This document shows, one piece after another, positions 4,805 to 49,818 of a stretch of DNA of 64,000 nt. The notes beneath the pieces were generated by a model. That model did no database searches. It had not been told where the DNA came from and worked only from the letters and a program-made list of their open reading frames with translations. The translations under genes and the position numbers were made by a program. The stretch is from Longimicrobiales bacterium (GTDB lineage: Bacteria; Gemmatimonadota; Gemmatimonadetes; Longimicrobiales; Gaopeijiaceae), in the NCBI GenBank assembly GCA_965203485.1, contig OZ241892.1, positions 3,232,001 through 3,296,000 on the forward strand. Direction: 5' to 3'. Each line of letters begins with the position of its first letter. The stretch's first letter is position 1.

Positions 4805-7467
4805 GGCCGCGGAGTCGGCGAGAACAAGTCGCGGTCTTCCCGGAAACGCCCAGCGCGGCTCGGCGGTCGCGGGGTTGCCGGCGGGCCCGCGTCCTCTTCT
4901 TTCGCCGCCCCGCCCTCGCGCGCCAAGTCCGCGCCGGGCGCCAGGCCGGCTTTGGCTCCCGTCGGCAGTCGCTTGTCCGCGGGCTCCGGGGGCTGTCCGT
5001 CCGCGCCGCCGCGGCCGCCCGCTCGGTCTCCGGTCTCCGCCAAGGCGCGCGACACCTCCACGATCCGGTCGCCCGGCTCCAGGGTCGTCAGCCGTCCGGC
5101 CAGGGCCAGCCTCCGCGTCACGGGCACCGAGCCCGCGACGAGCCAGTGCGTGCGCCCCGCGGCAGACACCACCATGACGCCGTCCTCGTCCAGGACCTCG
5201 AGCGCGCCGGCCAGGCGTCCTCCGTCCCGCTCCGGCAGGAGAAGCGCGCCCAGGCCGCCCCTCTTCTGCATCGGGAATTCGTCCATCGCGGTCCGCTTCC
5301 CCCTGCCGTCCTCGGTCACCGAAAGGATCGTCGTCTCGCGGACCAGCACGGCCATCCCCACCACGTAGTCTCCCGGCCGCAACCCGACCGCCTTGACGCC
5401 CTGCGCCCCGCGGCCCGCCACCGGCACCTGGGTCGCCGGGAAGCGTATCGCGCGGCCTCCATGGGTCGCGAACAGGAGCTCGGCTCCGCCGGACGCCAGT
5501 GCCACGTCGAGAATCTCGTCGCCGTCGCGCACTCCCGCGGCGAGGAGTCCCCCCGCCTTGGGACGCGCGTACTGGTCCAGCCGGGTGCGCTTCACCATGC
5601 CTTGCCGCGTCGCGAACACGACGTAGCAGTCCTCGGACAGGTCGTCGGCCGAGACCACGGCGGCGATGGGGTCGCGCGCGGGCGCGTCCAGGAGTCCGTA
5701 CGCCGAGCGTCCCCGCGAAGCCAGCGAAGCCTCGGGCACGTCTTCCAGCTTCAGGCGCCACACCTTGCCGCTCTTCGTGAAGAGAAGCAGCCATCCCTGC
5801 GTCCGGGCCACCACGGCGCGCTCGAGAAAGTCGCCCTCGTAGCGGCCCATGCGAGCCAGCGCCTTGCCCGCCGTCGTTCGGCGCTGGTGAATGTGCACCG
5901 GGATGCGCTTGAGGTAGCGGCGGCGCGAGACCGTCGCCACGACCGCTTCGTCCGCGGCGCCCGACTCCACGGGCGCGGCCGCGTCCTCGTCGCCCGCAAG
6001 GATATGGGTGCGGCGGGCGTCGCCGAACTGCTCCACGACGGCGTCCATCTCGGCGAGCATCGTGGCGAGCTGCAGCGACTCGTCCCCCAAGAGCTTCCGA
6101 AGTTCCCGTATCTCGGCCTCGAGGGCGGCCCTGCGCGCCCGCAGCTCGTCTCCTTCGAGGGCGGTGAGCTTGGCCAAGCGAAGATCGAGGATCGCGCCCG
6201 CCTGCACGTCGCTGAGGCCGAAGGCGTCCTGCAGCTTCTCGGCGGCTTCCGCGCGGTTCGCCGAGCCGCGGATCAGCGCGATGACTTGGTCGATGTCGTC
6301 CAGGGCGACGAGCAAGCCCTCGGTGACGTGGAGCGCCGCGAGGGCCTTCTCCAAGTCGAAGCGAGTCCGGGCGCGGATGACCTCGAGCCGGTGGTCGCGG
6401 AACCGCTCCAGCAATTCCTTCAGCGTGAACTCGCGGGGCTGCTTGCCGCCGTCCAGCGCGAGCAGGATCGCCCCGAACGTGGACTGAAGCGCCGTCTTCT
6501 TGAGGAGGAGCTGGACGATCCGCCCGGCGTCGGCGCCCCGCTTGAGCTCGATCACCAAGCGCACGCCCTCCCGGTCCGATTCGTCGCGCAACCCGGAGAC
6601 GTCCGGCAGGGCGCCCTTGCGCTTGAGTCCGGCGATCTGGTCCACGATGCGGGCCTTGGACGTGGCGTAGGGCAGTTCGGTCACGACGATCTGCCGCCGT
6701 CCCCCGCGCACAGCCTCCGTCACGATGCGGGCCCTCATCGTGATGCGGCCCCTCCCCGTCTCGTACATCTCGCGCAGGCCCTCCGCGCGCGCAACGAAGG
6801 CGCCCGTGGGGAAGTCCGGGCCCGGAAGGTCCTTCATCAAGTCGGCGACGTCGCAGTCCGGGCGCTCCACCAGGGTGCGCAGGGCGGCGGCCACCTCGCC
6901 CAGGTTGTGCGGCGGAACGTTGGTGCTCATGCCGACGGCTATGCCCGCGCTGCCGTTGACCAGCAGGTTGGGGATGCGGGCGGGCAGCACTGTGGGTTCC
7001 TGGAGACGGTCGTCGAAGTTGTCTTCCCACTGCACCGTCTCCTTCTCGATCTCGGCCAGCATCTCGCTCGCCACGGCGGACAGGCGCGCTTCCGTGTAGC
7101 GATAGGCCGCCGCCGCGTCGCCGTCGAGCGAGCCGAAGTTGCCCTGGCCGTCCACTAGCGGATAGCGCAGCGAGAAGTCCTGCACCATGCGGACCAAGGC
7201 GTCGTACACCGCCGCGTCGCCGTGCGGGTGGTACTTGCCCAGGACTTCGCCGACGACGGTGGCGCACTTCTTGTGGTCGCGGTCGGGCTGGAGCCCGAGC
7301 CCGTGCATTGCGAACAGGATGCGCCGGTGCACCGGCTTCAGGCCGTCGCGCACGTCCGGCAACGCGCGTTGAACGATCACGCTCATCGAGTAGTCGAGGA
7401 ACGAGTCGCGCATCTCGGTTTCGATGAGGCGCGAGACGATGCGTTCGCGTTGCTGGGCTAGCGTCAA
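4801..7467 (-). CDS. gyrA: type IIA topoisomerase subunit A (GyrA/ParC family; GyrA box degenerate)
   Basis: [29 protein letters not shown] catalytic Tyr, C-terminal pinwheel repeats; TTG start with GGAGAG RBS. Confidence 0.9.
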
Positions 7468-7576
7468 TTCGCTCTCCGTGGCCGGACGGGACGTGGCTGG
7501 CCGCTCCCTCCTGTCCCGCGTAGACGGCGCCGCCGGCCGCTACCCGGCCCGGTTTGGGGCTTTGCGACTTGGGCGC

Positions 7577-8500
7577 CTAGGCGCCGCGAGCGCGATTGCC
7601 GGGAGCATCGAGGGACGGAGCTGAGCGGCGGCCTAATATACGCCCCGGCGAAGGGCCCGCAGGGACCATCGCGCGCTCGAGGACCTTCACCGAGTCCCCC
7701 AGTTGGACGCGCCCGGGGCCGTCGTGGACCGCGTTGAGTCCGAAGTACGCCTTGTCCTCGATCTTGCGGTACCGGGCCAGCGTCCGCAACGGTTCCGACG
7801 CCGAATCGGCTTCGCCGGTGGCTTGGTCGATGGTGGTCACCTTGCAGCGCGCGCAGAGCTTGACGCCCGAGAACGTCACGCCGCCTGCGGAGAAGCGGCG
7901 CCACTGGTCCTCGTCGTGCGGCGGCGCCCCGCGGACGACGACGTTAGGCCGAAAGCGGTCGGCGGGCACGCGCCGGCCGGAGCGGCGGGCCAGCTCTTGG
8001 ACGGCGGCCTCGGTCACCACCAGAACCGGATATCCGTCGGCGAACGACACGCGGCGGCCTTCGGCGAAGGCGGGGTCGGCGAAGCGCATGTCGTCGTCGG
8101 CCATGAACGCGAGGCGGCGTTCGGTGCCCAGCCGTTCGGAGAGCCAGGCGTCGGCCTCGGCGCCGCACGACCGGGCCGCAACTTCGCTGTCCCAGACGCG
8201 CACCCGAAGGGGCGGCCCGCCCGCCGCGAAAGGGACTTGGAGGGGCGGGGCCCCGGGCGCGCTCAGGACCAGGCCGGCGCCGGGCTCCACGCGAGGGACC
8301 AGGCGGGCCAGCCCGGGCGTGTCGCGCTGCGAGCAGAACTGGCCCGCGGGGGTGGCGACGAGCCAGCGCCGGTCGTGGCACGGACCGAAGCGGTCGAAGT
8401 CGAGCGCATCGGCGTCCAGGCCGGCCGCGCCCTTCACCGGATAGATGCGCAGGCGGGCGACTCGAAGACGATCGGTCGCAGCGCCGGCCGGGCCGGTCAC
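7577..8500 (-). CDS. MOSC domain protein (YcbX/mARC-like)
   Basis: IYPVKG, DRRW, FADGYP, DRFRPNVVV, CARC; start approximate. Confidence 0.88.
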   Translation of the reverse strand: MTGPAGAATDRLRVARLRIYPVKGAAGLDADALDFDRFGPCHDRRWLVATPAGQFCSQRDTPGLARLVPRVEPGAGLVLSAPGAPPLQVPFAAGGPPLRVRVWDSEVAARSCGAEADAWLSERLGTERRLAFMADDDMRFADPAFAEGRRVSFADGYPVLVVTEAAVQELARRSGRRVPADRFRPNVVVRGAPPHDEDQWRRFSAGGVTFSGVKLCARCKVTTIDQATGEADSASEPLRTLARYRKIEDKAYFGLNAVHDGPGRVQLGDSVKVLERAMVPAGPSPGRILGRRSAPSLDAPGNRARGA

Positions 8501-8673
8501 GGGACGAAGCGGCCGCGTGGGCGGGCGTCGTCCGAACCGCCAACCGGCGCCTTGACACGAGGGCCGCTCACTTCCAGCGTACCAGACTCGGGAGACGGCG
8601 GCGCGCGCAACGGAGCGTTGCCGTCGCGCCAGGCCCGGCTCGGCAAATACCCCAGCGGCGGCGACCATCCGAC

Positions 8674-8973
8674 ATGTACAAAGCCGTGTTCCAAGTCACC
8701 GATGCGTACGACCACCCGCACGGAGGCCGAATTCTGCGATTGAAGCTGCGGTCGGGCGACGCGCCGAGCGTCAAGGCGCTCAAGAACAAGGTGGTGGTGG
8801 CGAGTTCTCCGGCGGGCGAGGAGGCGCGCCTGCGCGTGTCGAACTTCGCGGTCTTCGGGGGAAAGCCGTCCGACGCGCGCTTGGCGCGGACGGGACGCGC
8901 CGACGTGCTCGTGGAAGGCGACGGGGCGTCCCGGGTGGACGCGGGCTGGGAGGTCTCGGCGGGCAGGGGCTGA
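8674..8973 (+). CDS. small hypothetical beta-rich protein
   Basis: 99-aa ORF with host-like codon usage filling the gap between genes. Confidence 0.65.
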   Translation: MYKAVFQVTDAYDHPHGGRILRLKLRSGDAPSVKALKNKVVVASSPAGEEARLRVSNFAVFGGKPSDARLARTGRADVLVEGDGASRVDAGWEVSAGRG

Positions 8974-9013
8974 GCAGTCCGGCGGACGGTGGAGACGGCC
9001 CCGCGGCGCGCGA

Positions 9014-9814
9014 TCAGCGCTGGGCGGGCCCGCGGGCCGCGGTGTTGCCGCGCAGGCCGGGGGGTTCGCGCTCGAACGTGCGGCGAAACCACTCGGCGTA
9101 CTTTTCCGGCGCGTCGGGGTTGTCGGCCAGCCAAGCCCGGCGGGCCTCGACGAACGCGCCCGGCCGCGCCGTGAGGAGGAACGCGTCCAGGAAGCCTCGG
9201 CTCTTCGCGTAGGCGAGTTCGTCCAAGATGCCGTACGGGAAGGCTCCCAGGATGGCGCGGTGGTACAGCCAAGCGTCCGCCACGCGCGCCAGGACGGCCC
9301 GCTCGATCTCGAAGTCGCTTCCGCCTGCCGCGTCGGGAAGCCAGCGGTCCAGCCTGTCCTGCGCGGCCATCAGGTGCAGGTGCGCGTAGATGAGGTAGAT
9401 CGGGGCGGTGCCCGGCGCGCGTTGCGCTTCGATGTGCGCGGTGTCGGCTTCCTCGTTGATCGTCAGCGCGTCCCACGGGTACACGGGTCCTTCGCCGGCG
9501 TCCAGGTTGATCATGAAGGAAGGGTCGAGGCGGATGCTGTCCATCTGCTCGCGAAGCCAAGTGTCCACTTCCCTCATGTGCTCTTCGTCCGCCGTCAACC
9601 GTTCGCCCGAGTGGACCACCAGCCGCCGGGGCGTGGGCAGCTCGCTGGGACCGCCCGCGCCGCAAGCCTGCGACAGCGCCGCGACGGCCAGGGCGCCCGC
9701 GAGCGCCGCCTTCGCCTTCGCATTCCGGAGGCTGGGGGGGACGGAGGGGCGGGCAACGCGGTCGTCGTTCTCGGGGTCCTGCCGGAGGCGCTGGCTCGAG
9801 CGAGGCGTCGGCAT
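9014..9814 (-). CDS. hypothetical lipoprotein
   Basis: AGGAGG RBS; hydrophobic stretch ending LSQAC (lipobox-like). Confidence 0.7.
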   Translation of the reverse strand: MPTPRSSQRLRQDPENDDRVARPSVPPSLRNAKAKAALAGALAVAALSQACGAGGPSELPTPRRLVVHSGERLTADEEHMREVDTWLREQMDSIRLDPSFMINLDAGEGPVYPWDALTINEEADTAHIEAQRAPGTAPIYLIYAHLHLMAAQDRLDRWLPDAAGGSDFEIERAVLARVADAWLYHRAILGAFPYGILDELAYAKSRGFLDAFLLTARPGAFVEARRAWLADNPDAPEKYAEWFRRTFEREPPGLRGNTAARGPAQR

Positions 9815-9900
9815 GTTCCCCTCCTAGGGATGAGCCGCGGATTCTTGGACGGGCGACGGCCGGGCCAAGCGGCCCCCGTAGCAGTTCGCAACCCTCAAGT

Positions 9901-10119
9901 CTACGAGGATTCCTGCGACGCGGGCGCCGTTCCGGTCTCCCCTGCGTCGCGCCAGCGCAGCATTTCGAACGGACTCCGGCAGTCGTCGCACCAATAGGTC
10001 GCGAGCGAGGCGTGGCTGCCGAAGGCGGACGCCAGACTGGTGCGGCGCCCTCGGCAGTGCGGACAGACGGGACTCTTCGGGAGCCCAGCGGGCGGCCCTG
10101 CGAGCGGCTCGGCGCTCAT
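9901..10119 (-). CDS. PaaD C-terminal-like zinc-ribbon protein
   Basis: CPHC...FGS...YWCDDCRSPFE; ATGA overlap with paaC. Confidence 0.8.
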   Translation of the reverse strand: MSAEPLAGPPAGLPKSPVCPHCRGRRTSLASAFGSHASLATYWCDDCRSPFEMLRWRDAGETGTAPASQESS

Positions 10120-10940
10120 TCGACGAACAGGGACCGGTTGCGGTCGCCGCGCGCCCTCTCCACCGCTTCCTCGGCGGGGGAGCCCGGCCCGCGCCGCCGC
10201 TCCGAGTCCCAACCCGCCCGGTCGGGACACGCGTCCTCGAACCGGCGTCCGACCGCGGCCAGCGCAGGGCTCACGCGGTCGGCGTAGCGCTCGCGGACCC
10301 GCTCCTCGGGCCACACCTTGTCGTTCGCGGCCAGCGACTCGTAGAGATCGTCGCCGGGCAGCAGCCAGGCAAGCGTCGAAGGCAGCATGGCGTCCACGCC
10401 CGCGCGCAACCGGTCCGCCCCTTCGCCTCCCGCCGCGGCCAGGCGCTCGAACCACGCGGCCCCAAAGTGGCGATGATGCTCCTCCTCGGCGAGCATCTTG
10501 GGCACGCGCGACCGGGCCAGGGCGAAGCCGCCCGCGCCGAGGCTCTCCAGGGCCGTCTCCAGCGCCCCGTCCACGACGACCACGGCGGCCGTCAGCGCAG
10601 CCCAGTCCGCGAACTCGCCGTCGAGTGCCGGCAAGGAGTAGTAGCGGCCGGCGGGCCGCTCGTGCTCGACCGCGAACGGATCGAAGCCGAAGTCCCGCAA
10701 CATCGAGTAGAGGAGACGCGCGTGCCCCCATTCGTCTTGGGCCATGGACGACGCGGCGATTCCCGTCTCGATCGACGGACTGCCCAGCAGCCAGTCGCTG
10801 TAGCGGATGCCCAGCAGCCGCTTGGAGTCCGCGAGCGAGAGGATGTGGCGGGCGAGGGGGTCGGGGTCCCGCGCGGGCGCCGACGCGCCGTCGGCCGTCG
10901 TGCCGGAAGCGGGCGCCGGGCGGCCGCCGTCGCCGCTCAC
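10116..10940 (-). CDS. paaC: PaaC-like ferritin-fold epoxidase subunit
   Basis: LADSK, AQDEWGHAR, EEEHH; GTG start with GGAG RBS overlapping the paaB stop. Confidence 0.8.
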   Translation of the reverse strand: MSGDGGRPAPASGTTADGASAPARDPDPLARHILSLADSKRLLGIRYSDWLLGSPSIETGIAASSMAQDEWGHARLLYSMLRDFGFDPFAVEHERPAGRYYSLPALDGEFADWAALTAAVVVVDGALETALESLGAGGFALARSRVPKMLAEEEHHRHFGAAWFERLAAAGGEGADRLRAGVDAMLPSTLAWLLPGDDLYESLAANDKVWPEERVRERYADRVSPALAAVGRRFEDACPDRAGWDSERRRGPGSPAEEAVERARGDRNRSLFVE

Positions 10941-12771: not shown

Positions 12772-13071
12772 TCAAATCCCCAGACTGGACCGCATCAGCG
12801 GGCTGATCCGCTCGGGCGTCCAGGGAGGATCAAAGGTAAGCTCGACCTCCGCTTCTTCGACGCCTTCGACGCCTTCGACCGCGGCCTTCGCTTCTTCCAC
12901 GATCTGCCCGGCGGCCGGACACATCGGCGTGGTCAGCGTGATCGTGGCTTTGGCGCGCGCGCCATCCACTTCGATGCCGTAGACGAGGCCCAGCACCACC
13001 AAGTTCAGATTGAGCTCCGGGTCCTTGACGGCCTTGAGAGCGTCGCGAACGGCTTTCTCGGTTACGGGCAT
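12772..13071 (-). CDS. DUF59 (SufT-like) metal-sulfur cluster assembly factor
   Basis: VKDPELNLNLVVLGLVY, TLTTPMCP, FDPPWTPE. Confidence 0.9.
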   Translation of the reverse strand: MPVTEKAVRDALKAVKDPELNLNLVVLGLVYGIEVDGARAKATITLTTPMCPAAGQIVEEAKAAVEGVEGVEEAEVELTFDPPWTPERISPLMRSSLGI

Positions 13072-13088
13072 GGGATTTGCGGCGGCCT

Positions 13089-14075
13089 CTACGGCTCCAA
13101 GCGTTCGAGAGTGTCGATCGGTTGAAGGTTGGGGCGAAAGTCCATGTGGTAGGTCTCCAAGTCGATTCGGTAGAAGCCAACGTCGTGACGACCGTAGCCG
13201 GTCAAGTGCTGCCGCGTGACGAACTCGCCGGAGCGCACGCCAATCCGGCGGCGAAGGTATCTGCCCAGCTCGCTGTTGTCCATGGTCGTGTGAATGGCCT
13301 TGCCGTATTGCTGGGCAACCACGAGAATCAAACTCTGCCCGTCGTCGGTGAGCGCGGTGAAGCGACTGCCTATCGGCGGGAAGAAGGATCGATCCCGCAC
13401 GGGTTTGGGAATAGGAATGTACGCCTGGTTTGGATCTCGGCCATTCCGTTGTCCCCAGTTGAGCCCGGCCTTCAAGTGAGTATTGCCCTTCCGGTCGCCT
13501 TTCGTGGCCAGGAGAGGCAAGGTTGCAGCATCTTCGTAGGCGCCATCCTCAGGGGGCTTCGTGTTCATCAGTTTGACCGACGTTTCCACTCCCGCGTCCG
13601 TGCATGGGATGGATTGGTCGATCAAAGACGCATGGTGTTCCAATGTCGCATCGGGGTCGGCGTCCGCGACGGTCTCCCGCTGAGACGCCCCAAAACCAAG
13701 CATCGTGTAGTTGGCGGATCCGACGAACGCTCGAATCGGCATCCCCCTCTTCTTCCAAATGAATACTTTGGAGTGACAAGGATTTCCTCTTGTCAGATAG
13801 AAACAACTCACCGTTTCGGGGAATCGGCGAACAACGTCGCAAATGCCTTGATGTTGTGCGGCTTCGATGCCTGCCTGGACCATTCCTACGACGACCGTGA
13901 TCTTGGGCAATGTCGCTATGCGTCCTTCCGCCACGCCTTTCTGGAGAGCTTCAAGATGCTGTTCCAGCATGCTTGCGCTCACGTATCCAGAGACAACCAA
14001 GAGCTCGTCGGCTTCCTCGTTCGCCGCCGGGCGCATCAAGACTTCCCGAAAGAGTCCACCTCTCACGATTTGCAT
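13089..14075 (-). CDS. PLD-family restriction endonuclease (NgoFVII/CglI R-like)
   Basis: VSGY, HSKVFIW, GSANYT; C-terminal GLNWGQR..RDPNQAYIP..F...TDDG; overlaps the MTase gene. Confidence 0.85.
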   Translation of the reverse strand: MQIVRGGLFREVLMRPAANEEADELLVVSGYVSASMLEQHLEALQKGVAEGRIATLPKITVVVGMVQAGIEAAQHQGICDVVRRFPETVSCFYLTRGNPCHSKVFIWKKRGMPIRAFVGSANYTMLGFGASQRETVADADPDATLEHHASLIDQSIPCTDAGVETSVKLMNTKPPEDGAYEDAATLPLLATKGDRKGNTHLKAGLNWGQRNGRDPNQAYIPIPKPVRDRSFFPPIGSRFTALTDDGQSLILVVAQQYGKAIHTTMDNSELGRYLRRRIGVRSGEFVTRQHLTGYGRHDVGFYRIDLETYHMDFRPNLQPIDTLERLEP

Positions 14076-15148
14076 GGTGACACCTTTGCTTCTGTCAGGG
14101 TTCGCAGGACTGCTTCGAAGATGACTCGTGCCCCTCTCGGCGGAACGGCCATGCCGATCTGTCTCCGGACCGATTCCCTGCCACCGCAAAACACGAAAGA
14201 ATCGGGAAAGGTTTGCAAACGAGCGCGCTCGCGATTGGTGAGAGCACGGTCTTCCGACCAGTGGTAGACATGCGTGCCGCCGCCGCCGGAGCCCGTAACC
14301 GTGTACGAAGGCTGTTCCGGATCGAGTCGGCGATAGATCTGGCTAATGGTGGCGCCGCTGCGCATTCGGAGCCGCAACCGGGGAGGAAGATCGGCGGTAA
14401 AGGCGTTCTGGCCCGGCTTGATGTGCTTGAGTCGTTCGACGACTCGAGGATGCTGGGCCGTTCTCTGATGATTCTCGGCGTCGGCGGCGATCGGCGGCCG
14501 CTCCAGCGCGTCTCTGCACGACATGCGACGAGAAGACGCCTCCGGGGGACGGAACGCCAGTCCGAGCGACTTGCGAAAGCCTACGACGACAATGCGGTGT
14601 CTCCGTTGGGGAACACCATGCTCTTCGAACCGATACGTGCGAGAACACACGTCGTAGCCCGCGGATTCCAAGTCGTCCAGGATGATCTGATAATCTCGCT
14701 TCGCACCACTGCTTGCCAACCCGCTGACGTTCTCGGCGACGAAGAACAGGGGTTTGAAATGACGCAATGCGCGAACACCCCACTGGTACAATCCCCCGAA
14801 ACGGCCCGCGATGCCATTGCGCTCGCCAACGAGACTGAAGTCGTTGCACGGGAAACCAAACGCCAATCCATCAATAGGCGAAAGTGTGGCGAAATCAAGA
14901 TTTTCGACAGGACAATGCACGACGCCGTGGCGCGGAAATTCCACGTTTTGCTTCAAGGTGTCGCAGGCGTCGCCGTCGATGTCGTTCGCCCACGCGTGCA
15001 CGAAGCCAAAGCCGCCGTGGCGAGCCCGGGCAGCGCCTAGGGCCATGCCCCCGGCGCCGGCGAAAAGCTCGCCGAGTCGGTATTTTCGCTTGAGGACGGC
15101 AGGCGACGAGCGAAGACCGTCAAGTGGGATCATGGCCTGAACGGACAT
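14063..15148 (-). CDS. DNA (cytosine-5) methyltransferase
   Basis: ELFAGAGG, GFPCNDFS, ENV, PQRRHR, RERARLQTFPD, QIGMAVPP. Confidence 0.93.
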   Translation of the reverse strand: MSVQAMIPLDGLRSSPAVLKRKYRLGELFAGAGGMALGAARARHGGFGFVHAWANDIDGDACDTLKQNVEFPRHGVVHCPVENLDFATLSPIDGLAFGFPCNDFSLVGERNGIAGRFGGLYQWGVRALRHFKPLFFVAENVSGLASSGAKRDYQIILDDLESAGYDVCSRTYRFEEHGVPQRRHRIVVVGFRKSLGLAFRPPEASSRRMSCRDALERPPIAADAENHQRTAQHPRVVERLKHIKPGQNAFTADLPPRLRLRMRSGATISQIYRRLDPEQPSYTVTGSGGGGTHVYHWSEDRALTNRERARLQTFPDSFVFCGGRESVRRQIGMAVPPRGARVIFEAVLRTLTEAKVSPCKS

Positions 15149-15549
15149 CGTGTATCCCCCGATTCGGGGTTGCTCCGGGAACGGGCGCCCTCCCACCCCA
15201 CGGATCGTAACGGCCAGGGCGCAAGAGAACAAGAGGGGCGCCGTGTGCGTGGGCTCCTGTCGCTGTCGTTGCGGAGGAGACGAGCGCGCGGGGTGGCATT
15301 TCGACACGCGCGTTTAGCTGCCGGCGCGGCGCGGTCCATCATCGCTCCGACGGAGGCGGGGCCGGGAGGTCGCCGGGAACGCCGTGGGGTCGATTCGGTC
15401 GGCCTTGGCGTTCCAGGACGCCGAAGCGTAACTTGCGCCGGCGGCCATCGTGGTCCTCACAGGAGTTGTCGCTTGACCGAGGAAGCGCAATGCCGCATCC
15501 GGGACGGGGCTCGCAGATCGTGACGGAAGGACGCGGCCACGCGCGAAGC

Positions 15550-16629
15550 ATGCGAATCGCCATCAACACCGGCGGCGGAGACGCGCCGGGCCTCAACGCC
15601 GTATTGCGCGCCGCGGTGCTGGCGGCCGAGCGGCGGGGCTGGGACGTGGTGGGCATCGAACGGGGGTACGACGGCCTCTTCGCCGAGGGCGGCGTCGTGG
15701 AGCTCAACAGCGCGACGGTGAGCGGGATCACGCATGTGGGCGGAACGATCCTGGGCACGTCCAACCGGGGCAGTCCCTTCGCCTTTCCGGTCAAGCGCGG
15801 CGACGGGAGCGTCGAGGTCGTGGACCGCTCCGACGAGGTGGTCGAGCGCATGGACCGGCTCGGCATCGACTGCCTGATCGCGGTGGGCGGCGACGGGTCG
15901 TTGCGGATCGCGCGCGAGCTGGCCGAGAAGGGCCTCAAGGTCGTCGGCGTGCCCAAGACGATCGACAACGACCTCAACGCGACGGCGGTCACGTTCGGCT
16001 TCCACACGGCCGTGCAGACCGCGACGGACGCCATCGACAAGCTCCACTCGACGGCGGAGTCGCACCAGCGCGTCATGGTCGTGGAGCTCATGGGGCGCCA
16101 TGCGGGCTGGATTGCGCTCTTCGCGGGCTTCGCGGCCACGGCCGACGCCGTCCTCATCCCCGAAATCCCCTACGACTTGGCCAAGGTGGCCGAGAAGATC
16201 GCCGCGCGCTGGGCCGCCGGGCGCGAGTTCGCCATTATAGTTGTGGCCGAGGGCGCGATTCCCGTCGGCGGCGAGGCGTCGTACTTGGACGACACCGGGC
16301 CGGGACGCCCGCGAAGGCTCGGAGGAGCGGGCAAGCGGGTGGCCGAGGGCCTCGAGGCCCTCACCGGCAAGGAGACGCGCAGCCTCGTGCTGGGGCATCT
16401 GCAGCGCGGCGGGCGTCCGATCGCGTACGACCGCATCCTGTCGCTCCGCTTCGGAACGGCGGCGGTCGAGTTCGCGGAGCGCGGCCTCTTCGGGCGGCTC
16501 GTGGCGCTCGATCCGCCGGACATGCGAGCCGTGCCGCTGGCGGAGGCGGTGGAGAGGCTCAAGTCGGTTCCGCTCGACGGCGACATGGTGCGGGCCGCGA
16601 GGGCGATGGGAATTTCGTTCGGAGACTGA
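15550..16629 (+). CDS. pfkA: 6-phosphofructokinase (group III; GGDG/PKTIDND, probably ATP-dependent)
   Basis: TGGGDAPGLN, GGTILGT, GGDGS, PKTIDND, MGR, LGHLQRGG. Confidence 0.93.
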   Translation: MRIAINTGGGDAPGLNAVLRAAVLAAERRGWDVVGIERGYDGLFAEGGVVELNSATVSGITHVGGTILGTSNRGSPFAFPVKRGDGSVEVVDRSDEVVERMDRLGIDCLIAVGGDGSLRIARELAEKGLKVVGVPKTIDNDLNATAVTFGFHTAVQTATDAIDKLHSTAESHQRVMVVELMGRHAGWIALFAGFAATADAVLIPEIPYDLAKVAEKIAARWAAGREFAIIVVAEGAIPVGGEASYLDDTGPGRPRRLGGAGKRVAEGLEALTGKETRSLVLGHLQRGGRPIAYDRILSLRFGTAAVEFAERGLFGRLVALDPPDMRAVPLAEAVERLKSVPLDGDMVRAARAMGISFGD

Positions 16630-19477: not shown

Positions 19478-22396
19478 TCATCGGCTCCGCGGCCGGGGCC
19501 TCGCCTGCGAAGCGTGCCAGTCGGCCGCCCGCATCGACGCCAGGTTGGCGAACAGACGATAGGCGCCCGGCACGCCCGCCGGAAACTGCCGGAAGAAGGC
19601 CAATCCCGTGTACACGTAGAGGCCGTCGCCCACCGGGGCCACGAGCAGGCCGCCGCGTTGCGGCTCCTCGCCGGGATCGGCCAACTCGAGGACCGGCACG
19701 AAGCGCCGGTCCCAGTCGCTCAGAAAGTACAGGCCGCGCTCCTGCACCCAGCCCTCGAAGTCGGCCGCCCCGATGACGTTGGGGCCTCGGAACACCGGGG
19801 TCTCGGGCGCGAGCGCGGCCACGGGGGCCGTCTCGTCCACGACGCGGTCGTGCGGGCGGTTCATGCGCACCGGATAGGGCGCGAATCCGCCCTGCCCGTA
19901 CTCGTACTTGTTGTACTGGACGATCACGGTGCCGCCCGCCTGCGCAAAGCCGAGGACCGCGTCGTTCGCAGCGGCCAGCTCCGGGCGCGTCTCGTAGGCG
20001 CGGACGCCGAGCACGAGGACGTCGAGCCCCCCGAAGTCGCCGCTCCGCAACCGGCCGTCGTCCAGCAGCTCCACCGGCATCCCCGCTTGGCGGAGCGCAT
20101 CCGGCCCCGCGTCGCCCGATCCCATGATGTAGCCCACGCGCAGATCCGGGTTCGCGGCCAGAGGGAAGGCGGACACGCGCGAAGCGGCGCTTCCGTGCAG
20201 CGCCGCGCGCCGGATGTGGGGATGGGCCACGATGTCGTAGTCGCCTTCGAAGGCCGCGCCCGAGCCGTCTCGGGCCGACGCGCTGAAGATGTGCCGGCCG
20301 GCCGACGGCGCTCCCGAGGGCGCGACGTGAAAGACGAACGCGCCCGAGCCGCCCGGTTGCAGCGCAAACGGCCTCGACGCGGGCTCCACCCGCCAACCGT
20401 CTCCGGCATGGAGCCGCACCGAACCGGCTCGCGGCGACGCAGAGAGGTTGGCCACCGAGACCGTGAACGCGCGGGCGGCCCTGCTGGCCAGCGGCCACAC
20501 CATCGTTTGGGGAGCCAAGCCGACGTCCAGCGCAGGGGCCACGAGCACTCGCTCGCGGTACTCGCCCGACGCCTTGTCGACTCCTACGTAGCCGGCTTCA
20601 CGCACGACCTCGAGGAGATCCGTGCCGCTCGTCGAGAAGCCTTGGCCCGGGCTGGACGAGTCCGCCGCCGCACGCGCTCCCGCCGCAGACGACGACGCGT
20701 CCGAAGCGGCCGCCTGCGACGGCGCCAACCGCAACGCCGTCACCGCCCGCGCAGGCGCAGGGTCGAACGGCTTCGCCCACCGGTCGGCGTCCTCCGGCCA
20801 AGCGTACAAGTCGCCGGACCGCGGGCTTTCCAGGAAGTACGGCGCCGAGACCCGCGCCTGCGGCGGCACGGCCACTCGCCAGCTCCAGCGCGCGACGGCT
20901 CCCGGAAGCACGCGGCCGTCGGCGGGCGTCTCGGACGGATCGCTACGGAAGAAGAACGAGCCTCCGGGGTCCGTCGCGGCCTGGGCCGTCGCGGAAGCCG
21001 ACCATCCTTCCGGCAACTCCAAGCGCGGCGCCACGTCGTCCACCGCGAGCCGCCCCCCGTTCCAAACGATCACGTCCACCCCCACGGACTCCCCGGGAAC
21101 CACAACGTCCCGTGCCGCCCGCGCCTCCACCACCACGCCCGCCGCGGCGAGCGCCGTCTCGGACACGAGGGCCAACCGGTCGGCGATCATGCGGTGGGGC
21201 GGGCCGGGAGGCGCCTCGCGCGCCAGGCCGTCGAGAACGCGCGCCGCCTGGAGCAGTCCGGGAACAGCTCCGTCGCTCCGGTCCGCCGCCAGGGCGCCGC
21301 GAGCCGCGGCGACAGCCGTCCGGTACGCGTCCAGCCGCGCCCGCGCGTCCGAGGGCCAGGAAGGCGGCAACGGGTCGGGCAACTGGCCCGCCAGAGTCGT
21401 GTCGATGCCCGCGAACAGGCCGGTGTCGGCGCCCGCTTCGGCCCGCGAAGCCACGAGCGCCAACGGACTCTCCTGCGGCCCCATGATCTGCGGCGCACCC
21501 ATGTCCTGCGATCGGTGCCGGCTGCGGCTGGCCATCGCGAGCTGGAAGGGAGACATGCCCAGAAGCGGATCGAAGTCGCCCGTCGGCACCCGCAGCGTCG
21601 CGTCCCGAGGCGAAGAGCGCACCGACTGGTACAGCTTGAGCGGAGCCCACGGTTCCACGCCGCGTGCGGCCAGTCCCGGGAAGCGGACGGGATCGCCCGA
21701 CGCCTCGAAGGCTTCGCGCGCCGCCACTCCGGCCACCTGATGCTGGCCGTGCCGGTCCCGCGGCGTGCCCGAGAACACCGACACGATCACGTGGGGCCGA
21801 AACGCGCGAACCACGAAGACCACGTCGCGCACCACCTCGTCCAGCGGCCAGCGCCGCAACGTCTCGTCGAGCGTCTTGGAGTACCCGAAGTCGAAGGCCC
21901 GCGTGAAGTACTGCCTCCCGCCGTCGAGCTCCCGGGCGGCCACCAGCTCGCCGGTGCGCACGATCCCGAGCCCCTCTCCCAGCCTGGCGCCGATCAGATT
22001 CTGCCCGCCCTCGCCCCTGCTCAAGGACAGATACGCGGTCTCCGCTCCCATGCCCCGCGCCAATGCGGCCAAGAGTCCCGTGTCCTCGTCGTCCGGGTGG
22101 GCGGCGATCATCAGCACCCGCTTGACGCCGTCGAGCCGGCGGAAGCGAAGGGCGACCGAAGCGGCGCCGCGCTCGAACCGGGGCGCGTCTTGGACGGCCG
22201 GCGCGGGGGATTGGCGGAAGCCCGGGACGGCGGCCGAACGCGCGACGGAAGGACTCGCCTCCGGACTCGGCACACGCGGCGCGGCCAGCAGGTGGCGCGG
22301 CGCCGCGACGGGGGCGGCGAGCCCAAGGCCAAAGAGCGCCGCCGCGAACGCACGGCGGCCGGACGCGCACACGCCGAGGGCGATGGTCTGCTTCAT
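19478..22396 (-). CDS. secreted PIG-L family deacetylase with NEW3-like and C-terminal GATase-like domains
   Basis: AHPDDE, RGEGGQN, HGQHQ, SRHRSQDMG, GWVQERG, FFRQ..GVPGAYR; start uncertain. Confidence 0.88.
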   Translation of the reverse strand: MKQTIALGVCASGRRAFAAALFGLGLAAPVAAPRHLLAAPRVPSPEASPSVARSAAVPGFRQSPAPAVQDAPRFERGAASVALRFRRLDGVKRVLMIAAHPDDEDTGLLAALARGMGAETAYLSLSRGEGGQNLIGARLGEGLGIVRTGELVAARELDGGRQYFTRAFDFGYSKTLDETLRRWPLDEVVRDVVFVVRAFRPHVIVSVFSGTPRDRHGQHQVAGVAAREAFEASGDPVRFPGLAARGVEPWAPLKLYQSVRSSPRDATLRVPTGDFDPLLGMSPFQLAMASRSRHRSQDMGAPQIMGPQESPLALVASRAEAGADTGLFAGIDTTLAGQLPDPLPPSWPSDARARLDAYRTAVAAARGALAADRSDGAVPGLLQAARVLDGLAREAPPGPPHRMIADRLALVSETALAAAGVVVEARAARDVVVPGESVGVDVIVWNGGRLAVDDVAPRLELPEGWSASATAQAATDPGGSFFFRSDPSETPADGRVLPGAVARWSWRVAVPPQARVSAPYFLESPRSGDLYAWPEDADRWAKPFDPAPARAVTALRLAPSQAAASDASSSAAGARAAADSSSPGQGFSTSGTDLLEVVREAGYVGVDKASGEYRERVLVAPALDVGLAPQTMVWPLASRAARAFTVSVANLSASPRAGSVRLHAGDGWRVEPASRPFALQPGGSGAFVFHVAPSGAPSAGRHIFSASARDGSGAAFEGDYDIVAHPHIRRAALHGSAASRVSAFPLAANPDLRVGYIMGSGDAGPDALRQAGMPVELLDDGRLRSGDFGGLDVLVLGVRAYETRPELAAANDAVLGFAQAGGTVIVQYNKYEYGQGGFAPYPVRMNRPHDRVVDETAPVAALAPETPVFRGPNVIGAADFEGWVQERGLYFLSDWDRRFVPVLELADPGEEPQRGGLLVAPVGDGLYVYTGLAFFRQFPAGVPGAYRLFANLASMRAADWHASQARPRPRSR

Positions 22397-22665
22397 GCTC
22401 TTCAATGTACGAAGATGGCGGGTTGGGCGAAGCCGGCTACCTGGAGTCGGCTTGTCGCGTCGTCGTGGATCGAGACCTGATGACGCGCACGAAGGGAGAA
22501 TCAAGCTCTTCTCGATGGATGTACGCCTTCAGGCCTTGAAGCGCCGCCGTGAGTCGGCAGTCCCTCAGTCGCGACGATCCGCGACCGGATGCGGGAGGCC
22601 GCCGTTGACGAATGCCGTCGTGGCGAAGGGACGATGAGAGAGCCTCGGCGCATGCGGCGTCACGC

Positions 22666-24948
22666 TCACGCGCCGTAACTCAGCAGGTCGCCCCAGAAGG
22701 CGGTGACATCAGGTCGGCTTCGTTCCCGCGTGTCTTCTCCCGCCCGGATGATCTTGGGCGGATGGGACAAGCGAAGCAATGGTTCGTGGGGTCCGGCTCT
22801 CCGTACGGACTGCTTGGTCAACAGACCATGCTTCTCCAGCATGTGCCGGAGATTCGGCCATTGCGGCGATCGCGTTGTGGAGAACTTCGCCAAGTCGCTT
22901 TCAGAGACGTAGAACCGCCGCTCCATCTTGTGAAGAAAGCGCGCGAGCAGTTCAATGCGCTCCTTTTGGGCGGGAGTGTATCTTGGAGCCCTCAAGGCAA
23001 TATCGACGTCCGCGCCCAGCTTTGCCAAGATCGCGCGTACGCTTTCCGGCGCGAAGTAGTCGCCCTTCACGAAGTCCTCGTCGCCGGCTTCCACAACGAT
23101 GCCGTGCACCTGCGTCGTCAGGTCGTCCGAGGCGTGCTCGAATCGCGTCTTCGCCATCGCCACGGACGGAGACGACAGCGTGCATTCTTCGAATGTCGGC
23201 GATTGCATCTGTGCTTGCGTGAAGTCGACTTCCCTAAAATCGCAACGGTAGAAGCGCGGCCGTTCCAAGACGATGTGCCCCAAGTTCTCCTGCCGAAAAT
23301 CCAAGTTGCGCAGCGTCCCGGCCGGCCTCAGTCGCCCTCCCATTGCCAGCAAGCCGGCTACGATCCGACCGCCGTTCTCTCGTGCAACCGCGTGCATCAG
23401 CCCCGGACGCAGGACGTTGCACACCGATTCGATGATCATTGCGCGGGCAGAGTCGTTCGCGCCGGTGGTTCGCGTTGCCTGCCGAACCACCATGTCGTCG
23501 AGCACGGAGCGTTCCAAGAATCGCCGAAGATCGTCCGAACCGTCCTTAAGGCACCGGCGGAGCTTGTCCGCCAAGAAGTAGCCGTAGAGGACTTCATGCT
23601 CAAAGCATAGATCGCGTTTGGTCGCGCCGACCGTCCTCAAGAACGCGTAGCTGGATGCACGATTCTGGATTGCTGCGACAGTTTCTCGAGGCAGATCATA
23701 GTCCTCGGCTAGCAAAGCACCGAGTTCTTGAACCGTGTCGAAGTCCAAGCGGCGGGCCTCTTGCCACCACATTTCCATGGCCAATTCCGTCAGAAACAGT
23801 CGATGCTGTTCGCGGGTCAAGAGAGGCGTTCCTTCTTTGCTGGTCAGCTTGCCGTGCTCTCGGTTGATGAAGGCTTCCACGAGCTGCTCGATCACGGTGT
23901 CGTCCGATGAAATGCTCTCGCCTTCGATGAGCAGGTCTGTAATCCGTGACACGTAGAACGGCTTAGACAGCAGCTCGCGGTCGTCCAGTTCGTCCCGGAG
24001 TTTCTGAAAGTCGGCCAACACGTGCGCACTGTTTGCGGAGTCGTGTCGTCTCGCCGTCGAGGAAACAAATTCCTCGGCTTGGGCGTCGCCCCATGGTTTC
24101 AGATCAACGGTGTCCACGCCGTAGCCGAGACGCCCATCGTACCCGAACCGGCTGGCGTATTCGCGAAAGTTGTTGTAGTCGAAGAAGGAAGACCGCGCCG
24201 AGGCGACGACCACGCCCGATTGCTCGAGCTTCGCCACGAAGGTGGCTAGCGAAGAAAACGCTTCGTCGTATCCGCCGCTGCCGAGCAATTCGTCGAAGCC
24301 GTCTACGACCGGAACCAAGAGGCCGCGCCGAACGAGGGGCACGACGGCGCTGTACGGGAACTTGGCGCGCAGATCGTCGAGTTCCCGTGCCATGGCCTCG
24401 TCCAGGCGCGACAGAGAGCGACCTTGGACGTCGACATAGAAGAACAATGACTTGGCTGTGCCGTTCATGTACTTCTGGGCGCGCAGGAGAGTCATCCGCC
24501 TCAACGCCATCGTCTTTCCCGATCCAGCCTCTCCTCCAACCAACAGAATTCGGGTTTCCTGGAACGGAAGGTCTTCGGTGCTGCGCGCCTCGATGAGCTC
24601 GACCGCTGCGGTCGGCTCCGCTTCGTTGTCGTCGTCGTCGCGGGCGACGGCCAACGTGTCGACATATCCGGGTTCGTTCGGCGTGGTCTTGACCACGAAC
24701 TGCGCGAGCTGTTGGAGATCGGCCAAGTGCGGACTGGCAAGAAACGACTTGTAGTTCATCCGGCTGTCATTACAGACAACGTCCGGCAAGGCTCCGGCAG
24801 CCGACTGCAGCAACGTCACTTCACGTTCGTTTCCCCCTTTCTCCCAAACTAAGATGCCCCCTTCTGCGAGCACGTCCGATCCGGGATCCGAAAATGCCCG
24901 GACGTCTCTCTTGATCTCCGCGATGACGTTGATTGCGCTACCACTCAT
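22666..24948 (-). CDS. NACHT/STAND-type NTPase with pentapeptide-like repeats
   Basis: Walker A GEAGSGKT, Walker B LVPVVDGFDE, VVASAR, LLSKPFY, FEHEVLYGYFLA; repeats LRNLDFRQENL..FYRCDFREVDF..FEECTL. Confidence 0.82.
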   Translation of the reverse strand: MSGSAINVIAEIKRDVRAFSDPGSDVLAEGGILVWEKGGNEREVTLLQSAAGALPDVVCNDSRMNYKSFLASPHLADLQQLAQFVVKTTPNEPGYVDTLAVARDDDDNEAEPTAAVELIEARSTEDLPFQETRILLVGGEAGSGKTMALRRMTLLRAQKYMNGTAKSLFFYVDVQGRSLSRLDEAMARELDDLRAKFPYSAVVPLVRRGLLVPVVDGFDELLGSGGYDEAFSSLATFVAKLEQSGVVVASARSSFFDYNNFREYASRFGYDGRLGYGVDTVDLKPWGDAQAEEFVSSTARRHDSANSAHVLADFQKLRDELDDRELLSKPFYVSRITDLLIEGESISSDDTVIEQLVEAFINREHGKLTSKEGTPLLTREQHRLFLTELAMEMWWQEARRLDFDTVQELGALLAEDYDLPRETVAAIQNRASSYAFLRTVGATKRDLCFEHEVLYGYFLADKLRRCLKDGSDDLRRFLERSVLDDMVVRQATRTTGANDSARAMIIESVCNVLRPGLMHAVARENGGRIVAGLLAMGGRLRPAGTLRNLDFRQENLGHIVLERPRFYRCDFREVDFTQAQMQSPTFEECTLSSPSVAMAKTRFEHASDDLTTQVHGIVVEAGDEDFVKGDYFAPESVRAILAKLGADVDIALRAPRYTPAQKERIELLARFLHKMERRFYVSESDLAKFSTTRSPQWPNLRHMLEKHGLLTKQSVRRAGPHEPLLRLSHPPKIIRAGEDTRERSRPDVTAFWGDLLSYGA

Positions 24949-25642
24949 GGATTCGCACTCCCTCCCGTTCCAGCACTTCCCTGTAGAAGCTTCGCGTCTT
25001 GCGCTTTGTCAAGTGTATTAGCGCGACATCCGATGCTGCAAGCGCCAGCATCGCGGGAATCATGTCGTCGTCGTCGCTTGCAAGCACTACCGCATCTGCC
25101 AGTCTCTCGTAGCGGATGGCCATGGCGTCGGCGGTGAGCAACGTGTCGATCATCTTCTGGGCATATCTCGATGCGACGTCCGGGAGGCGCACCGGACAAG
25201 TGGGCTCGGGGCACCGCCCGGCGCACCAGGACTCGAACGACAAGAGGCTGCAACCATCGGTTCCCAAGGCGCAACGGGGAGCGCGCTCGACCTTCGTCTT
25301 GAGGCGCCCACTGCGCACGAGTCGCACGGACTCTCGAATGGGAACGTTGCGGTCCCATACGGGCGACTCGGCGAGTTCCAGCCGAAACATTTGGCGGCCG
25401 GCGCGCCGCGGCATTTGTTGGATCGCGTTGTTCAACATGCGACGAAGGTCGTGTTGCGTCGCGGGCACGTCGCCGTCCCATCCGCCGTAGAGGCGGGTGG
25501 TCACCTCTCCGGCCGAGGGGACTGTCGCTAGAACCTGCTCCGTCAGTTGCTCCAATCCCAACCGGACATCGCCGAACCGGGGGCGACGGCCGGTGGGCCA
25601 GAGATCGAGATTGAATAGATCGGCGAGGCAGTAGGCGTGCAT
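24938..25642 (-). CDS. NYN (PIN-like) domain nuclease with Cys-rich insertion
   Basis: N-terminal CLADLFN (DxxN), RLYGGW, QKMIDTLLTAD, VLASDDDDMIP; 11-bp overlap with the NTPase start. Confidence 0.8.
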   Translation of the reverse strand: MHAYCLADLFNLDLWPTGRRPRFGDVRLGLEQLTEQVLATVPSAGEVTTRLYGGWDGDVPATQHDLRRMLNNAIQQMPRRAGRQMFRLELAESPVWDRNVPIRESVRLVRSGRLKTKVERAPRCALGTDGCSLLSFESWCAGRCPEPTCPVRLPDVASRYAQKMIDTLLTADAMAIRYERLADAVVLASDDDDMIPAMLALAASDVALIHLTKRKTRSFYREVLEREGVRIHEW

Positions 25643-25757: not shown

Positions 25758-26681
25758 TCACGCCCGCGGCCACGGCTTTCCCAGGCGGGCGGGCGCTTGG
25801 GAGCGGCCGAACCAGCCGGCGAGGGCGGCTAGGCACAGGACGTAGGGGAGGGCCAGGAAGAGCGGATAGGGGAGGTCCGCGTTGGTGGCCTGGAGGACGA
25901 ACTGGAGGGCCTCGGCTCCGCTGAAGAAGAGGGCTGCCGCGACGACGCCCTTGGGGTCCCAGCGTCCGAGCACGACGACCGCGATGGCGACGAAGCCTCG
26001 TCCGGCGGACATGTTCTCGGCGAACGTGCCGGTGTGGACGAGGCTTAGGTGGGCGCCCGCGAGGCCGGCCATGAGTCCGCCGAAGAGCGTCGCGGCCACG
26101 CGGGTTCGGATCACGGGAATGCCGGCGGCGTGGGCGGCGTCGGCGTCTTCGCCGGTTGCGCGCAGGGCGAGTCCCCGGCGGGTTCGGAAGAGGAACCACG
26201 CGAGCAGCGGGGCCAGGACGTAGACGGCGTAGAGCGTGGGCGGGCCGTCGAAGAGTACGGGTCCCAGGAGCGGCGCCTTGGACAGCAGGGGGATTTCCCA
26301 GGCCGGAACGGTTTGCAGCTCCAAAGCCAAGCCGGTTGCCCCGAAGCGGCTCTGGAAGACGGCGCCGGTGAAGCCGAGGCTCCCGACGGTGACCGCTGTG
26401 CCCACCACGATCTGGTTTGCGTTCAGGCAGACGGCGAAGAACGCGAAGACCAAGGCGGCCGCGCCTCCGGCGAGCGAGCCGCCGGCCAGTCCGGCGTAGG
26501 GACCGGCGGCCAAGCCCGCCAAGGCGCCGCCCAGCGCTCCGCAGATCATGGAGCCCTCGATGCCAATGTTGATGACGCCCGCCCGCTCGGACACGGTCTC
26601 GCCCAGGGCCGCCAGCGCCAGCGGGACGGCAAGGCCCGTGGCGGCCGACAGGAAGGCCGCGAGCATGCCCGAGTCAGCCAC
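25758..26681 (-). CDS. ABC transporter permease (nucleoside/sugar, NupC-like)
   Basis: ERAGVINIGIEG, LRATGE...GI, AGRGFVAIA, LPY. Confidence 0.92.
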   Translation of the reverse strand: MADSGMLAAFLSAATGLAVPLALAALGETVSERAGVINIGIEGSMICGALGGALAGLAAGPYAGLAGGSLAGGAAALVFAFFAVCLNANQIVVGTAVTVGSLGFTGAVFQSRFGATGLALELQTVPAWEIPLLSKAPLLGPVLFDGPPTLYAVYVLAPLLAWFLFRTRRGLALRATGEDADAAHAAGIPVIRTRVAATLFGGLMAGLAGAHLSLVHTGTFAENMSAGRGFVAIAVVVLGRWDPKGVVAAALFFSGAEALQFVLQATNADLPYPLFLALPYVLCLAALAGWFGRSQAPARLGKPWPRA

Positions 26682-35047: not shown

Positions 35048-36194
35048 CTACCTCTGCCGTTGGTGCACTAGTTCTTCGAGGCGGGAAAGCCATTTGCGGA
35101 ACCGAGGGCATTCCTCGCGAATTCGCGTCAAGCCCGCTCGTAGGGCCACCCTTGGGCCATCGATGCGCTTCCTGTATCTCGGCAAAATCTTTGCGATTTG
35201 CTTGCTTGGCGCGGTCTCGGGATCGTCGTTGATGTCTTCCGGCGTTTCTGCCAGAGTTCGCCCGTCGTGTAGCGCTCGAGCCAGCGGCGATGCTCGCTGT
35301 CGTCGCATTTCTTGATCTTCGTTTGCCGGTCTCGCAGTTCCAGAACGAAAATCTCGTCGAGACTGAACTCGTCGACAAGCAGCGGTGATTGGGTGGCTGC
35401 AATAATCTGTCGCTCGCTCGAGAGTGCCTTGATCATCTCCCCTACCATGCCGACTGCGGCAGGGTGCAATCCCAGTTCCGGTTCATCAAGCAACAAGACC
35501 TCGGGAAGCATCGCCGACGGCAGGCTCAACAATGTCACCAGCGCAAAGAAGCGCAACGATCCGTCGGATGTCAGGTGGGCGCCAATGCTCTTGCCAGGTT
35601 TGCACCGTCTGCCCGAAGATAGTTCTTGTCTTCAATGTCCCAGCTCTTCTTCATTCTCGAATCATGAGACGTATCGTGAAACTGATATACGGAGCAACGC
35701 CGAAGTCGAGCACGAAGCACTTTGGCTGTCGTGAAGTTGACGCCAAGAGCGTTGTCCTCGGTCACTTCGGTAATCATGGCTTCGGCGTGTCCCCTGGCGT
35801 TGATCTCCTGCCAGGGCGCCTCCGCCCCCCATTCTTCTCGGCTGAAGCGCACTGCTTCCTGCGTGAACATGAGCTCGTCGCCCGCTGCATAGGCCAGCGC
35901 AAACCTGTAGTCGCCCCTGCCGCTGTCGGTCCGCATTCCGATCTCGCCCTCCATCAACGGAGTCTGCTTGCTGCCACCGAAGAGCTGGTCGTCCGCACCT
36001 CCGTGTCTTCGGACGAATTCGGCGAGTCGGCGCGGGCCCACCATCCAGCTCGTCATTTCGAAGAACCGAATGACGTTGGACTTGCCGACGCTGTTGGGGC
36101 CGATGAAGACGGCCGACATCGGCAGATCGGCAATCTCGACGTCGGCGAGCGACCGGAAGCCCTTGACGCGAACGAAGTCGACCTTGTTGGGCAT
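35048..36194 (-). pseudogene. internally deleted AAA_21 ATPase plus DUF4276-like partner (remnant)
   Basis: VKGFRS, GPNSVGKSN; frame break to SDGSLRF..LLDEPELGLHP..ATQSP..GELWQK; then a jump into PEDIND.PETAPSK..CPRF.KWL. Confidence 0.8.
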
Positions 36195-49776: not shown

Positions 49777-49818
49777 GCGCCGCGGCGACTGTGCGCGATG
49801 CAACTGCGAGGAGGACGA

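Follow-up and report, generated by a model that had tools for sequence, protein, structure and literature searches.

A co-inherited NYN nuclease and NACHT gene pair from a Longimicrobiales bacterium, an apparently undescribed candidate defence module

What is a compact pair of AT-rich genes doing between two host genes of a Longimicrobiales bacterium? The pair lies in a 64,000-nucleotide stretch of contig OZ241892.1 (assembly GCA_965203485.1, positions 3,232,001 to 3,296,000), which we refer to as the window. Gene 1 (25642-24938, minus strand, 234 aa) encodes an NYN (PIN-fold) nuclease, a predicted ribonuclease (RNase), and gene 2 (24948-22666, minus strand, 760 aa) a predicted NACHT (STAND) NTPase. 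An earlier note, made from the sequence alone, had proposed an undescribed anti-phage system in which an NLR-like sensor activates a separately encoded RNase. The two genes are one conserved, co-inherited cassette, a small, mobile unit that moves horizontally. The module is real, conserved and apparently undescribed, and is built from known parts, being NLR-like with an unfused effector. Whatever its mechanism, we think it probable that it serves in defence.

That the two genes belong together is evident from their homologues. From 158 NACHT loci we dropped 32 in which the N-terminus was lacking, the match fell below 200 bits or less than 700 nt lay upstream, and at 94 of the 126 eligible loci a NYN gene lies directly upstream of the NACHT gene. 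Of the 32 eligible loci without one, 22 belong to a solo clade and five are similar loci outside the tree; three have lost the gene and two encode distant proteins. Gene spacing is 30 nt or less at 88 of 100 measured loci, with overlap at 45 (by heuristic start picks), and the 11-bp overlap that the earlier note had read in the window (24938-24948) was confirmed in the sequence. In the reverse test, NYN profile matches of at least 57 bits were taken from three samples of 401 genomes, each including its seed, and a NACHT gene followed directly downstream in 7/7 cases in the window's phylum and in 5/5 and 5/5 in the two other phylum samples; three of these 17 matches are seed genomes and one (G380) is a broken remnant. 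Homologues thus remain paired, and paired copies occur in 12 named phyla, one of them being the short-NYN copy in cultured Methylorubrum rhodinum DSM 2163 (L063). One of L056 and L057 may be misbinned, because these two short contigs are almost identical yet carry different labels. Neither of two weaker NYN matches, G146 (52 bits) and G260 (41 bits), has a NACHT gene in its 3.5-kb locus, and we excluded both as belonging to another subfamily.

The partners have also evolved together. NYN and NACHT distances correlate at 0.66 over 76 pairs, a value reached in 0/999 permutations, and the ratio of nonsynonymous to synonymous substitution rates (dN/dS) is 0.06-0.34 for NYN (13 pairs) and 0.08-0.50 for NACHT (10 pairs), indicating purifying selection on both. 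At two loci, L071 (6657-10259, plus strand) and L064, NYN and NACHT share one reading frame. We do not use these fusions as support, because the L071 chain is a single case that differs from L044 and L052 by a deletion of 5 nt close to the end of the NYN, and the L064 NACHT is itself frameshifted. Locus L065 holds two facing module copies, a short-NYN pair (7343-10307, plus strand) and a distant Cys-insert pair (12863-15918, minus strand).

The pair is patchy and mobile, as shown by its presence in only 6 of 401 genomes of the window's phylum sample (all six NACHT-carrying genomes have the NYN), its spread over 12 phyla, empty sites in related genomes and a low GC content at third codon positions (GC3). 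Overall, about 1-2% of the sampled genomes carry the module. The insertion is bordered upstream by an ABC permease gene (25758..26666, minus strand; Pfam BPD_transp_2) and downstream by a PIG-L family gene (19478..22399, minus strand; Pfam PIG-L), both host genes, and these Pfam matches uphold the insertion site given in the earlier note. So does its remark on composition, as GC is 63.3% in gene 1 and 59.9% in gene 2 versus 72.1% in the permease gene and 73.5% in the PIG-L gene, and GC3 is 0.76 and 0.74 versus a genome median of 0.88. In a genome of the same genus (G002) only 100 bp separate the permease match from the PIG-L match, and in one of the same family (G005) about 400 bp do, the cassette being absent from this site in both; the distance is 30 kb in G001 and 1.4 kb in G007. 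Terminal repeats that would mark the insertion were not found at the site, where promoter and terminator counts were at chance level. Searches for plasmid matches to either protein gave none, and viral contigs yielded no NYN relative and one distant NACHT (L206) that lacks a NYN and differs in its N-terminus.

Gene 1 by its residues and model has the intact active site of the NYN / LabA-DUF88 (PIN-fold) class. Pfam NYN matches at E 7e-5, slightly below the curated cut-off, and PF01936 appears at 30-36% among the Atlas neighbours. The AlphaFold2 (AF2) model, with a predicted local distance difference test score (pLDDT) of 92, aligns in VIA-align with the MARF1 NYN domain 5yaa (Z 12.8, root-mean-square deviation (rmsd) 2.9, 140 aligned) and with VPA0982 2qip (Z 11.7), which rank above all other rows and are followed by 5' flap nucleases; with the same model Foldseek found nothing at E<=0.001. 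The acidic motifs read in the earlier note are all present, as D8xxN11, Q162KMID166 and S189DDDD193, and D8, D166, D191 and D193, together with Y52 and K163, are invariant in a 76-row NYN alignment. By analogy with the family, RNA is the presumed substrate. The same note had called the protein Cys-rich; the cysteines exist, and the richness is due to a single removable insert (25166..25315, minus strand; residues ~110-159) with C124, C131, C144 and C149, which may bind zinc. Each of these positions holds a Cys in 51-53 of the 101 partner sequences aligned, and the segment is missing from nearly all others, while among 148 library representatives at least three Cys occupy the insert position in all 129 whose motif could be scored. 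No longer NYN form occurred among 7999 candidates, which is weak evidence. L203 (1414-2256, minus strand) and L204 (1405-2166, minus strand) represent a more remote NYN subfamily, whose Cys-rich insert is of another kind and whose 3.5-kb loci hold no NACHT.

Gene 2, as judged from motifs and model, is a true NACHT-clade STAND NTPase with its switch intact. Pfam NACHT matches above cut-off (E 5.5e-9), and in the NACHT core (23539..24558, minus strand; residues ~131-470) Walker A (GEAGSGKT 139-146, with K145), Walker B (DGFDE 216-220) and, in the winged-helix F-E-H motif, F449 and H451 are invariant across 109 sequences, so that the Walker and FxH motifs claimed earlier are all there. DGFDE fits D[GAS]hDE, which Kibby et al. 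(10.1101/2022.07.19.500537) describe as the NACHT signature; in the same paper a mutant of the winged-helix domain (WHD) histidine was auto-active for bNACHT25. The AF2 model (pLDDT 89) has the nucleotide-binding, helical, winged-helix and second helical domain order (NBD-HD1-WHD-HD2) with the WHD histidine, and its best structural match is NLRC4 (6b5b_B; Z 19.9, rmsd 3.9, 362 aligned, model 68-538). A fused enzymatic effector was not detected in gene 2.

In front of this core lies a small N-terminal domain (24754..24948, minus strand; residues ~1-65), modelled as one helix and a five-strand sheet. As the earlier note had observed, it holds no recognisable effector, since no Pfam family is shared across 81 members (any one family in at most 1/81), and against the sequences of solved structures it has no match under E 0.14. 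It conserves D15, F19, D21 and W35 and is a candidate adaptor that matches no known family, though it may be a divergent form of a known fold. NA-iREase2 (PF22723), suggested by Atlas neighbours, was found in 0/5 pair-carrying genomes. Three related NACHTs without NYN (L139, L140 and L206, the last on the viral contig) have long N-terminal extensions.

Behind the core, residues 538 to ~630 (23059..23337, minus strand) form repeated short strands in the AF2 model, in agreement with the pentapeptide-like repeats noted earlier, and Pfam pentapeptide matches at 547-606 are all below cut-offs. Model residues 516-651 align with SV2A chain 8jlg_A (Z 9.5), in a part that we take to be the pentapeptide helix of SV2A. 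A C-terminal repeat region, as in bNACHT and Avs sensors, is thus predicted, and its sensing role is putative. The earlier suggestion that the repeats mimic DNA as bait is not supported, because the block is short and not acidic. DNA mimics such as MfpA and Qnr are long acidic beta-helix rods that make up most of the protein, whereas the repeats of gene 2 cover 45 of 183 positions of the MfpA model and 54 of 218 of the QnrA model, about a quarter, and residues 538-606 have a net charge of +1 (homologue median -2.9 per 100 aa, less acidic than the N-terminal domain). The last domain (22669..22983, minus strand; residues ~656-760) is a better candidate for nucleic-acid contact. Modelled as helix-helix-helix-hairpin, it probably has a winged-helix fold; its net charge is +8, and it is the sole region with a positive median charge in homologues. 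Weak Pfam hints in it are DUF7599 in 10/81 members and PadR and Cdc6_C in one each. Among the top matches in searches with longer models, neither terminal domain had a structural match, and this does not in itself make them new folds.

The module matched no named system, in keeping with the earlier note. No system in PADLOC-DB 2.0 (2023) or NCBIfam 20.0 matched either gene, the PADLOC Avs models included; weak domain-level matches were limited to mad8 (E 7e-4) and to HalA, Qnr and MfpA repeats far under cut-off. NCBI names for members go no further than NACHT- or NYN-domain protein. Full-text literature searches gave no published NYN-NACHT gene pair, although the NACHT family may already be listed in a supplement as a clade. 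The bNACHT proteins of Kibby et al. (10.1101/2022.07.19.500537) share the D[GAS]hDE NACHT module, the WHD histidine and horizontal spread with gene 2, and pentapeptide repeats are among their sensor types. Their effectors are mostly fused and the genes tested there were rarely in operons, in contrast to the separate, tightly linked RNase and the extra C-terminal winged-helix-like domain described here, and the main text of that paper mentions neither PIN nor NYN. The Avs/AVAST systems (KpAvs2-Avap1-Avap2, PMC11564622; expanded set, PMC13581612) likewise have a STAND switch and a defence context, and some need extra genes; however, KpAvs2 is described as bearing its own Mrr nuclease (PMC11564622), and the sensors surveyed are mostly TPR-like and at least 400 aa, with no mention of NYN, PIN or pentapeptide in the main text (PMC13581612).

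For a receptor or NTPase acting through a separate effector the logic has precedents in HEC-03, DS-5, the NLR/Bell pairs and the vWA PIN-NACHT fusions. HEC-03, as reported by Payne et al. (10.1101/2024.01.29.577857), combines an NTPase gene with a separate PIN-fold RNase, but its ATPase is of the ABC type, not STAND; HEC-09 of the same study has a MARF1-like NYN fold, but is a single gene, and its model is matched by 1 of 76 partner NYNs (E 3e-4). Among the DefensePredictor systems (PMC13092281), DS-3 and DS-5 are defending PIN RNases, DS-5 having two genes and a PIN described as non-toxic alone, and DS-8 is a defending NACHT with a fused metallophosphatase; in that paper's account of these three, no PIN or NYN is paired with a NACHT. 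In the NLR/Bell amyloid pairs and Bab/Agp (10.1101/2024.11.07.622273) receptor and effector also lie in adjacent genes, but are reported to be coupled by a shared amyloid motif, with an effector that targets membranes, whereas the N-terminal domain of gene 2 is predicted to be folded and its profile has no convincing match to NYN proteins. The closest printed PIN/NACHT domain link that we found is in the vWA-MoxR ternary systems (Kaur et al. 2020, PMC7159879), where PIN can share one polypeptide with a NACHT domain; there the fusion sits within the vWA component, in a system made of three parts. At the module loci we saw no recurring vWA, MoxR or VMAP partner.

Do the homologues keep company with defence genes? 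A FastTree phylogeny of the NACHTs (106 rows) separates a Cys-insert clade, which includes the window copy (43 rows, two without NYN), a short-NYN clade (41 rows, one with only a NYN fragment) and the solo clade (22 rows, mostly Actinomycetota), and the NYN type changes once across it. We scanned 265 of 505 selected neighbour genes, at 43 of 78 genome loci, with PADLOC and a simple gene caller of our own. At E<=1e-15 matches lie near 29/43 loci versus 6/20 control stretches, and at E<=1e-40 near 19/43 versus 1/20 (Fisher p 0.0015, inflated by kin), the controls (131 genes, 20 stretches, six related genomes) not being host-matched and related loci not being independent. By clade the stricter threshold gives 15/22 for the Cys-insert clade, 1/10 for the short-NYN clade and 3/11 for NYN-less loci; the strict match at L023 presumably is a sigma factor, as its motif suggests. 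The strict matches of the Cys-insert clade fall into about eight distinct contexts, namely BREX, type I/IIG/III/IV restriction-modification (RM), DUF499-type, DISARM and NsnA. The defence-gene neighbourhood that the earlier note had proposed to test for is therefore found in the window's own clade, but not in the short-NYN clade or at the window copy itself.

Pairing, co-inheritance, purifying selection, mobility, defence context and the precedents lead us to favour a two-part system. We propose that it acts by abortive infection, the NACHT switch activating the separate NYN RNase, and give this about an even chance. At rest the NACHT would be ADP-bound and closed, as in NLRs and Avs. An invader signal would be read by the C-terminal beta-helix and the basic winged-helix-like tail, and nucleotide exchange and assembly of a NACHT ring would follow. 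The ring would then recruit and activate the NYN, probably via the small N-terminal domain, and the NYN would cut RNA and halt the infected cell. A complex prediction with NACHT 1-470 and NYN scored 0.11 relative to a mark of 0.32, which is evidence neither way. A variant, rather unlikely in our estimate, is an inflammasome-like NLR that detects invader nucleic acid with its basic winged-helix tail, instead of a protein with its repeats, and whose new type of N-terminal adaptor recruits the separate RNase, the NYN-less clade having swapped partners; were the Schlafen-ATPase and ThiF proteins described below such partners, the adaptor would be modular.

Several observations weigh against the two-part reading. 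The solo clade, with no NYN nearby, keeps its N-terminal domain and catalytic motifs, and the NYN profile found nothing in 8/8 solo-clade genomes and two others that had lost the NYN, while positive controls were recovered, so that the NACHT in these genomes does not need this RNase. In several lineages it is the NYN that has gone or broken first, with the NACHT frame still open, namely at L027, L036, L068, L219 and one contig of run X6 from a related organism, where NYN codons 158-218 are deleted and the 5' part is replaced. Defence genes are not enriched around the short-NYN clade, the genes around the window copy are housekeeping genes, the closest RM pair lying about 7 kb off, and the comparison above has imperfect controls. 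The solo NYN HEC-09 gave no defence in the published tests (10.1101/2024.01.29.577857).

Both this NYN-less clade and the basic C-terminal domain of gene 2 had been overlooked in the earlier note. At Solirubrobacterales-type loci, solo NACHTs lie beside a Schlafen AlbA_2-HATPase_c_4 gene on the opposite strand (L034, L038, L046, L048, L059, L098 and L101), and at L042 and L106 on the same strand; at L049, L051, L105 and L110 the neighbour is a ThiF gene. The remaining solo-clade loci have no recurrent neighbour.

Early loss of the NYN is what a restraining model, the main rival, predicts. In it an NYN that is active by default is held back by the resting NACHT, a guard or antitoxin, until a trigger or the disappearance of the NACHT sets it free, giving defence or addiction with the opposite sign. 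Such an arrangement would also fit the tight translational coupling of the two genes, the 17/17 strong NYN matches that never lack a NACHT and the want of any clear case of an intact NYN beside a broken NACHT among the loci seen. However, an effector useless by itself would likewise never occur alone, and the losses are few and come from a sample that favours intact NACHT copies, as most loci were found via the NACHT and L211-L220 show just the first ~490 NACHT residues. The Walker A, Walker B and WHD histidine residues are invariant, as in activating switches, and most type II toxin-antitoxin pairs do not begin with the toxin gene, whereas here the NYN comes first. The pattern of loss fits a restraining role of the NACHT as well as it fits activation, and taking everything together we hold the guard arrangement to be possible, if on the unlikely side.

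The solo clade, whose 22 members keep all domains, raises instead the thought that the NACHT is self-sufficient, with the N-terminal or the basic C-terminal domain as effector and the NYN as an add-on or back-up nuclease. bNACHT01 is reported to defend alone, its clade being an exception to effector fusions (10.1101/2022.07.19.500537), and one KpAvs2 accessory gene was dispensable against some phages (PMC11564622). We nevertheless consider this improbable, given pairing in 81 of the 84 tree rows of the two NYN clades versus about 5% reported for Avs2 accessory genes (PMC11564622), and given that several solo members adjoin other candidate effectors (Schlafen-HATPase_c_4 and ThiF). The housekeeping neighbours, which recur at 9/10 short-NYN loci, could also mean that the pair has no part in anti-phage defence and is a selfish cassette, or a regulator of stress or RNA turnover, that lands in variable genome regions; non-defence STAND clades are indeed described as interspersed with defence ones (PMC13581612). 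Against this stand the repeated independent placement by RM, BREX and DISARM genes, the small share of genomes with the module, and the lack of a transposase, terminal repeats or plasmid copies, and we regard it as very unlikely.

Elsewhere in the window small defence-like islets are dispersed. An NgoFVII-type restriction endonuclease with an adjoining C5 cytosine methyltransferase occupies a lower-GC islet (13089-15232, minus strand). A HEC-01A-like ABC ATPase is present as two consecutive open reading frames (35131-36194, minus strand) and is probably broken, because one matches the N-terminal and the other the C-terminal half of a single model. Further genes on the minus strand encode an AAA_14-DUF4143 protein (41057-42208), an N6/N4 methyltransferase (44892-45719) and a type II methyltransferase followed by an unassigned 180-aa gene (54292-55774). 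A quinohemoprotein amine dehydrogenase cluster, with alpha subunit, radical SAM enzyme and gamma subunit, lies at 46670-50253 on the plus strand.

In most of the bacterial NLR-like sensors characterised so far, sensor and effector are parts of one chain, whereas here the effector is separate. If the activating two-part reading is right, the pair would be a two-gene model for effector recruitment in trans by an NLR, as in animal inflammasomes, and would place a NYN nuclease in a working defence system after the solo NYN candidate HEC-09 had failed. The family holds its own natural controls, in clades that have or lack the Cys insert and in the RNase-less clade, and the copy in cultured M. rhodinum DSM 2163 makes the module directly testable.

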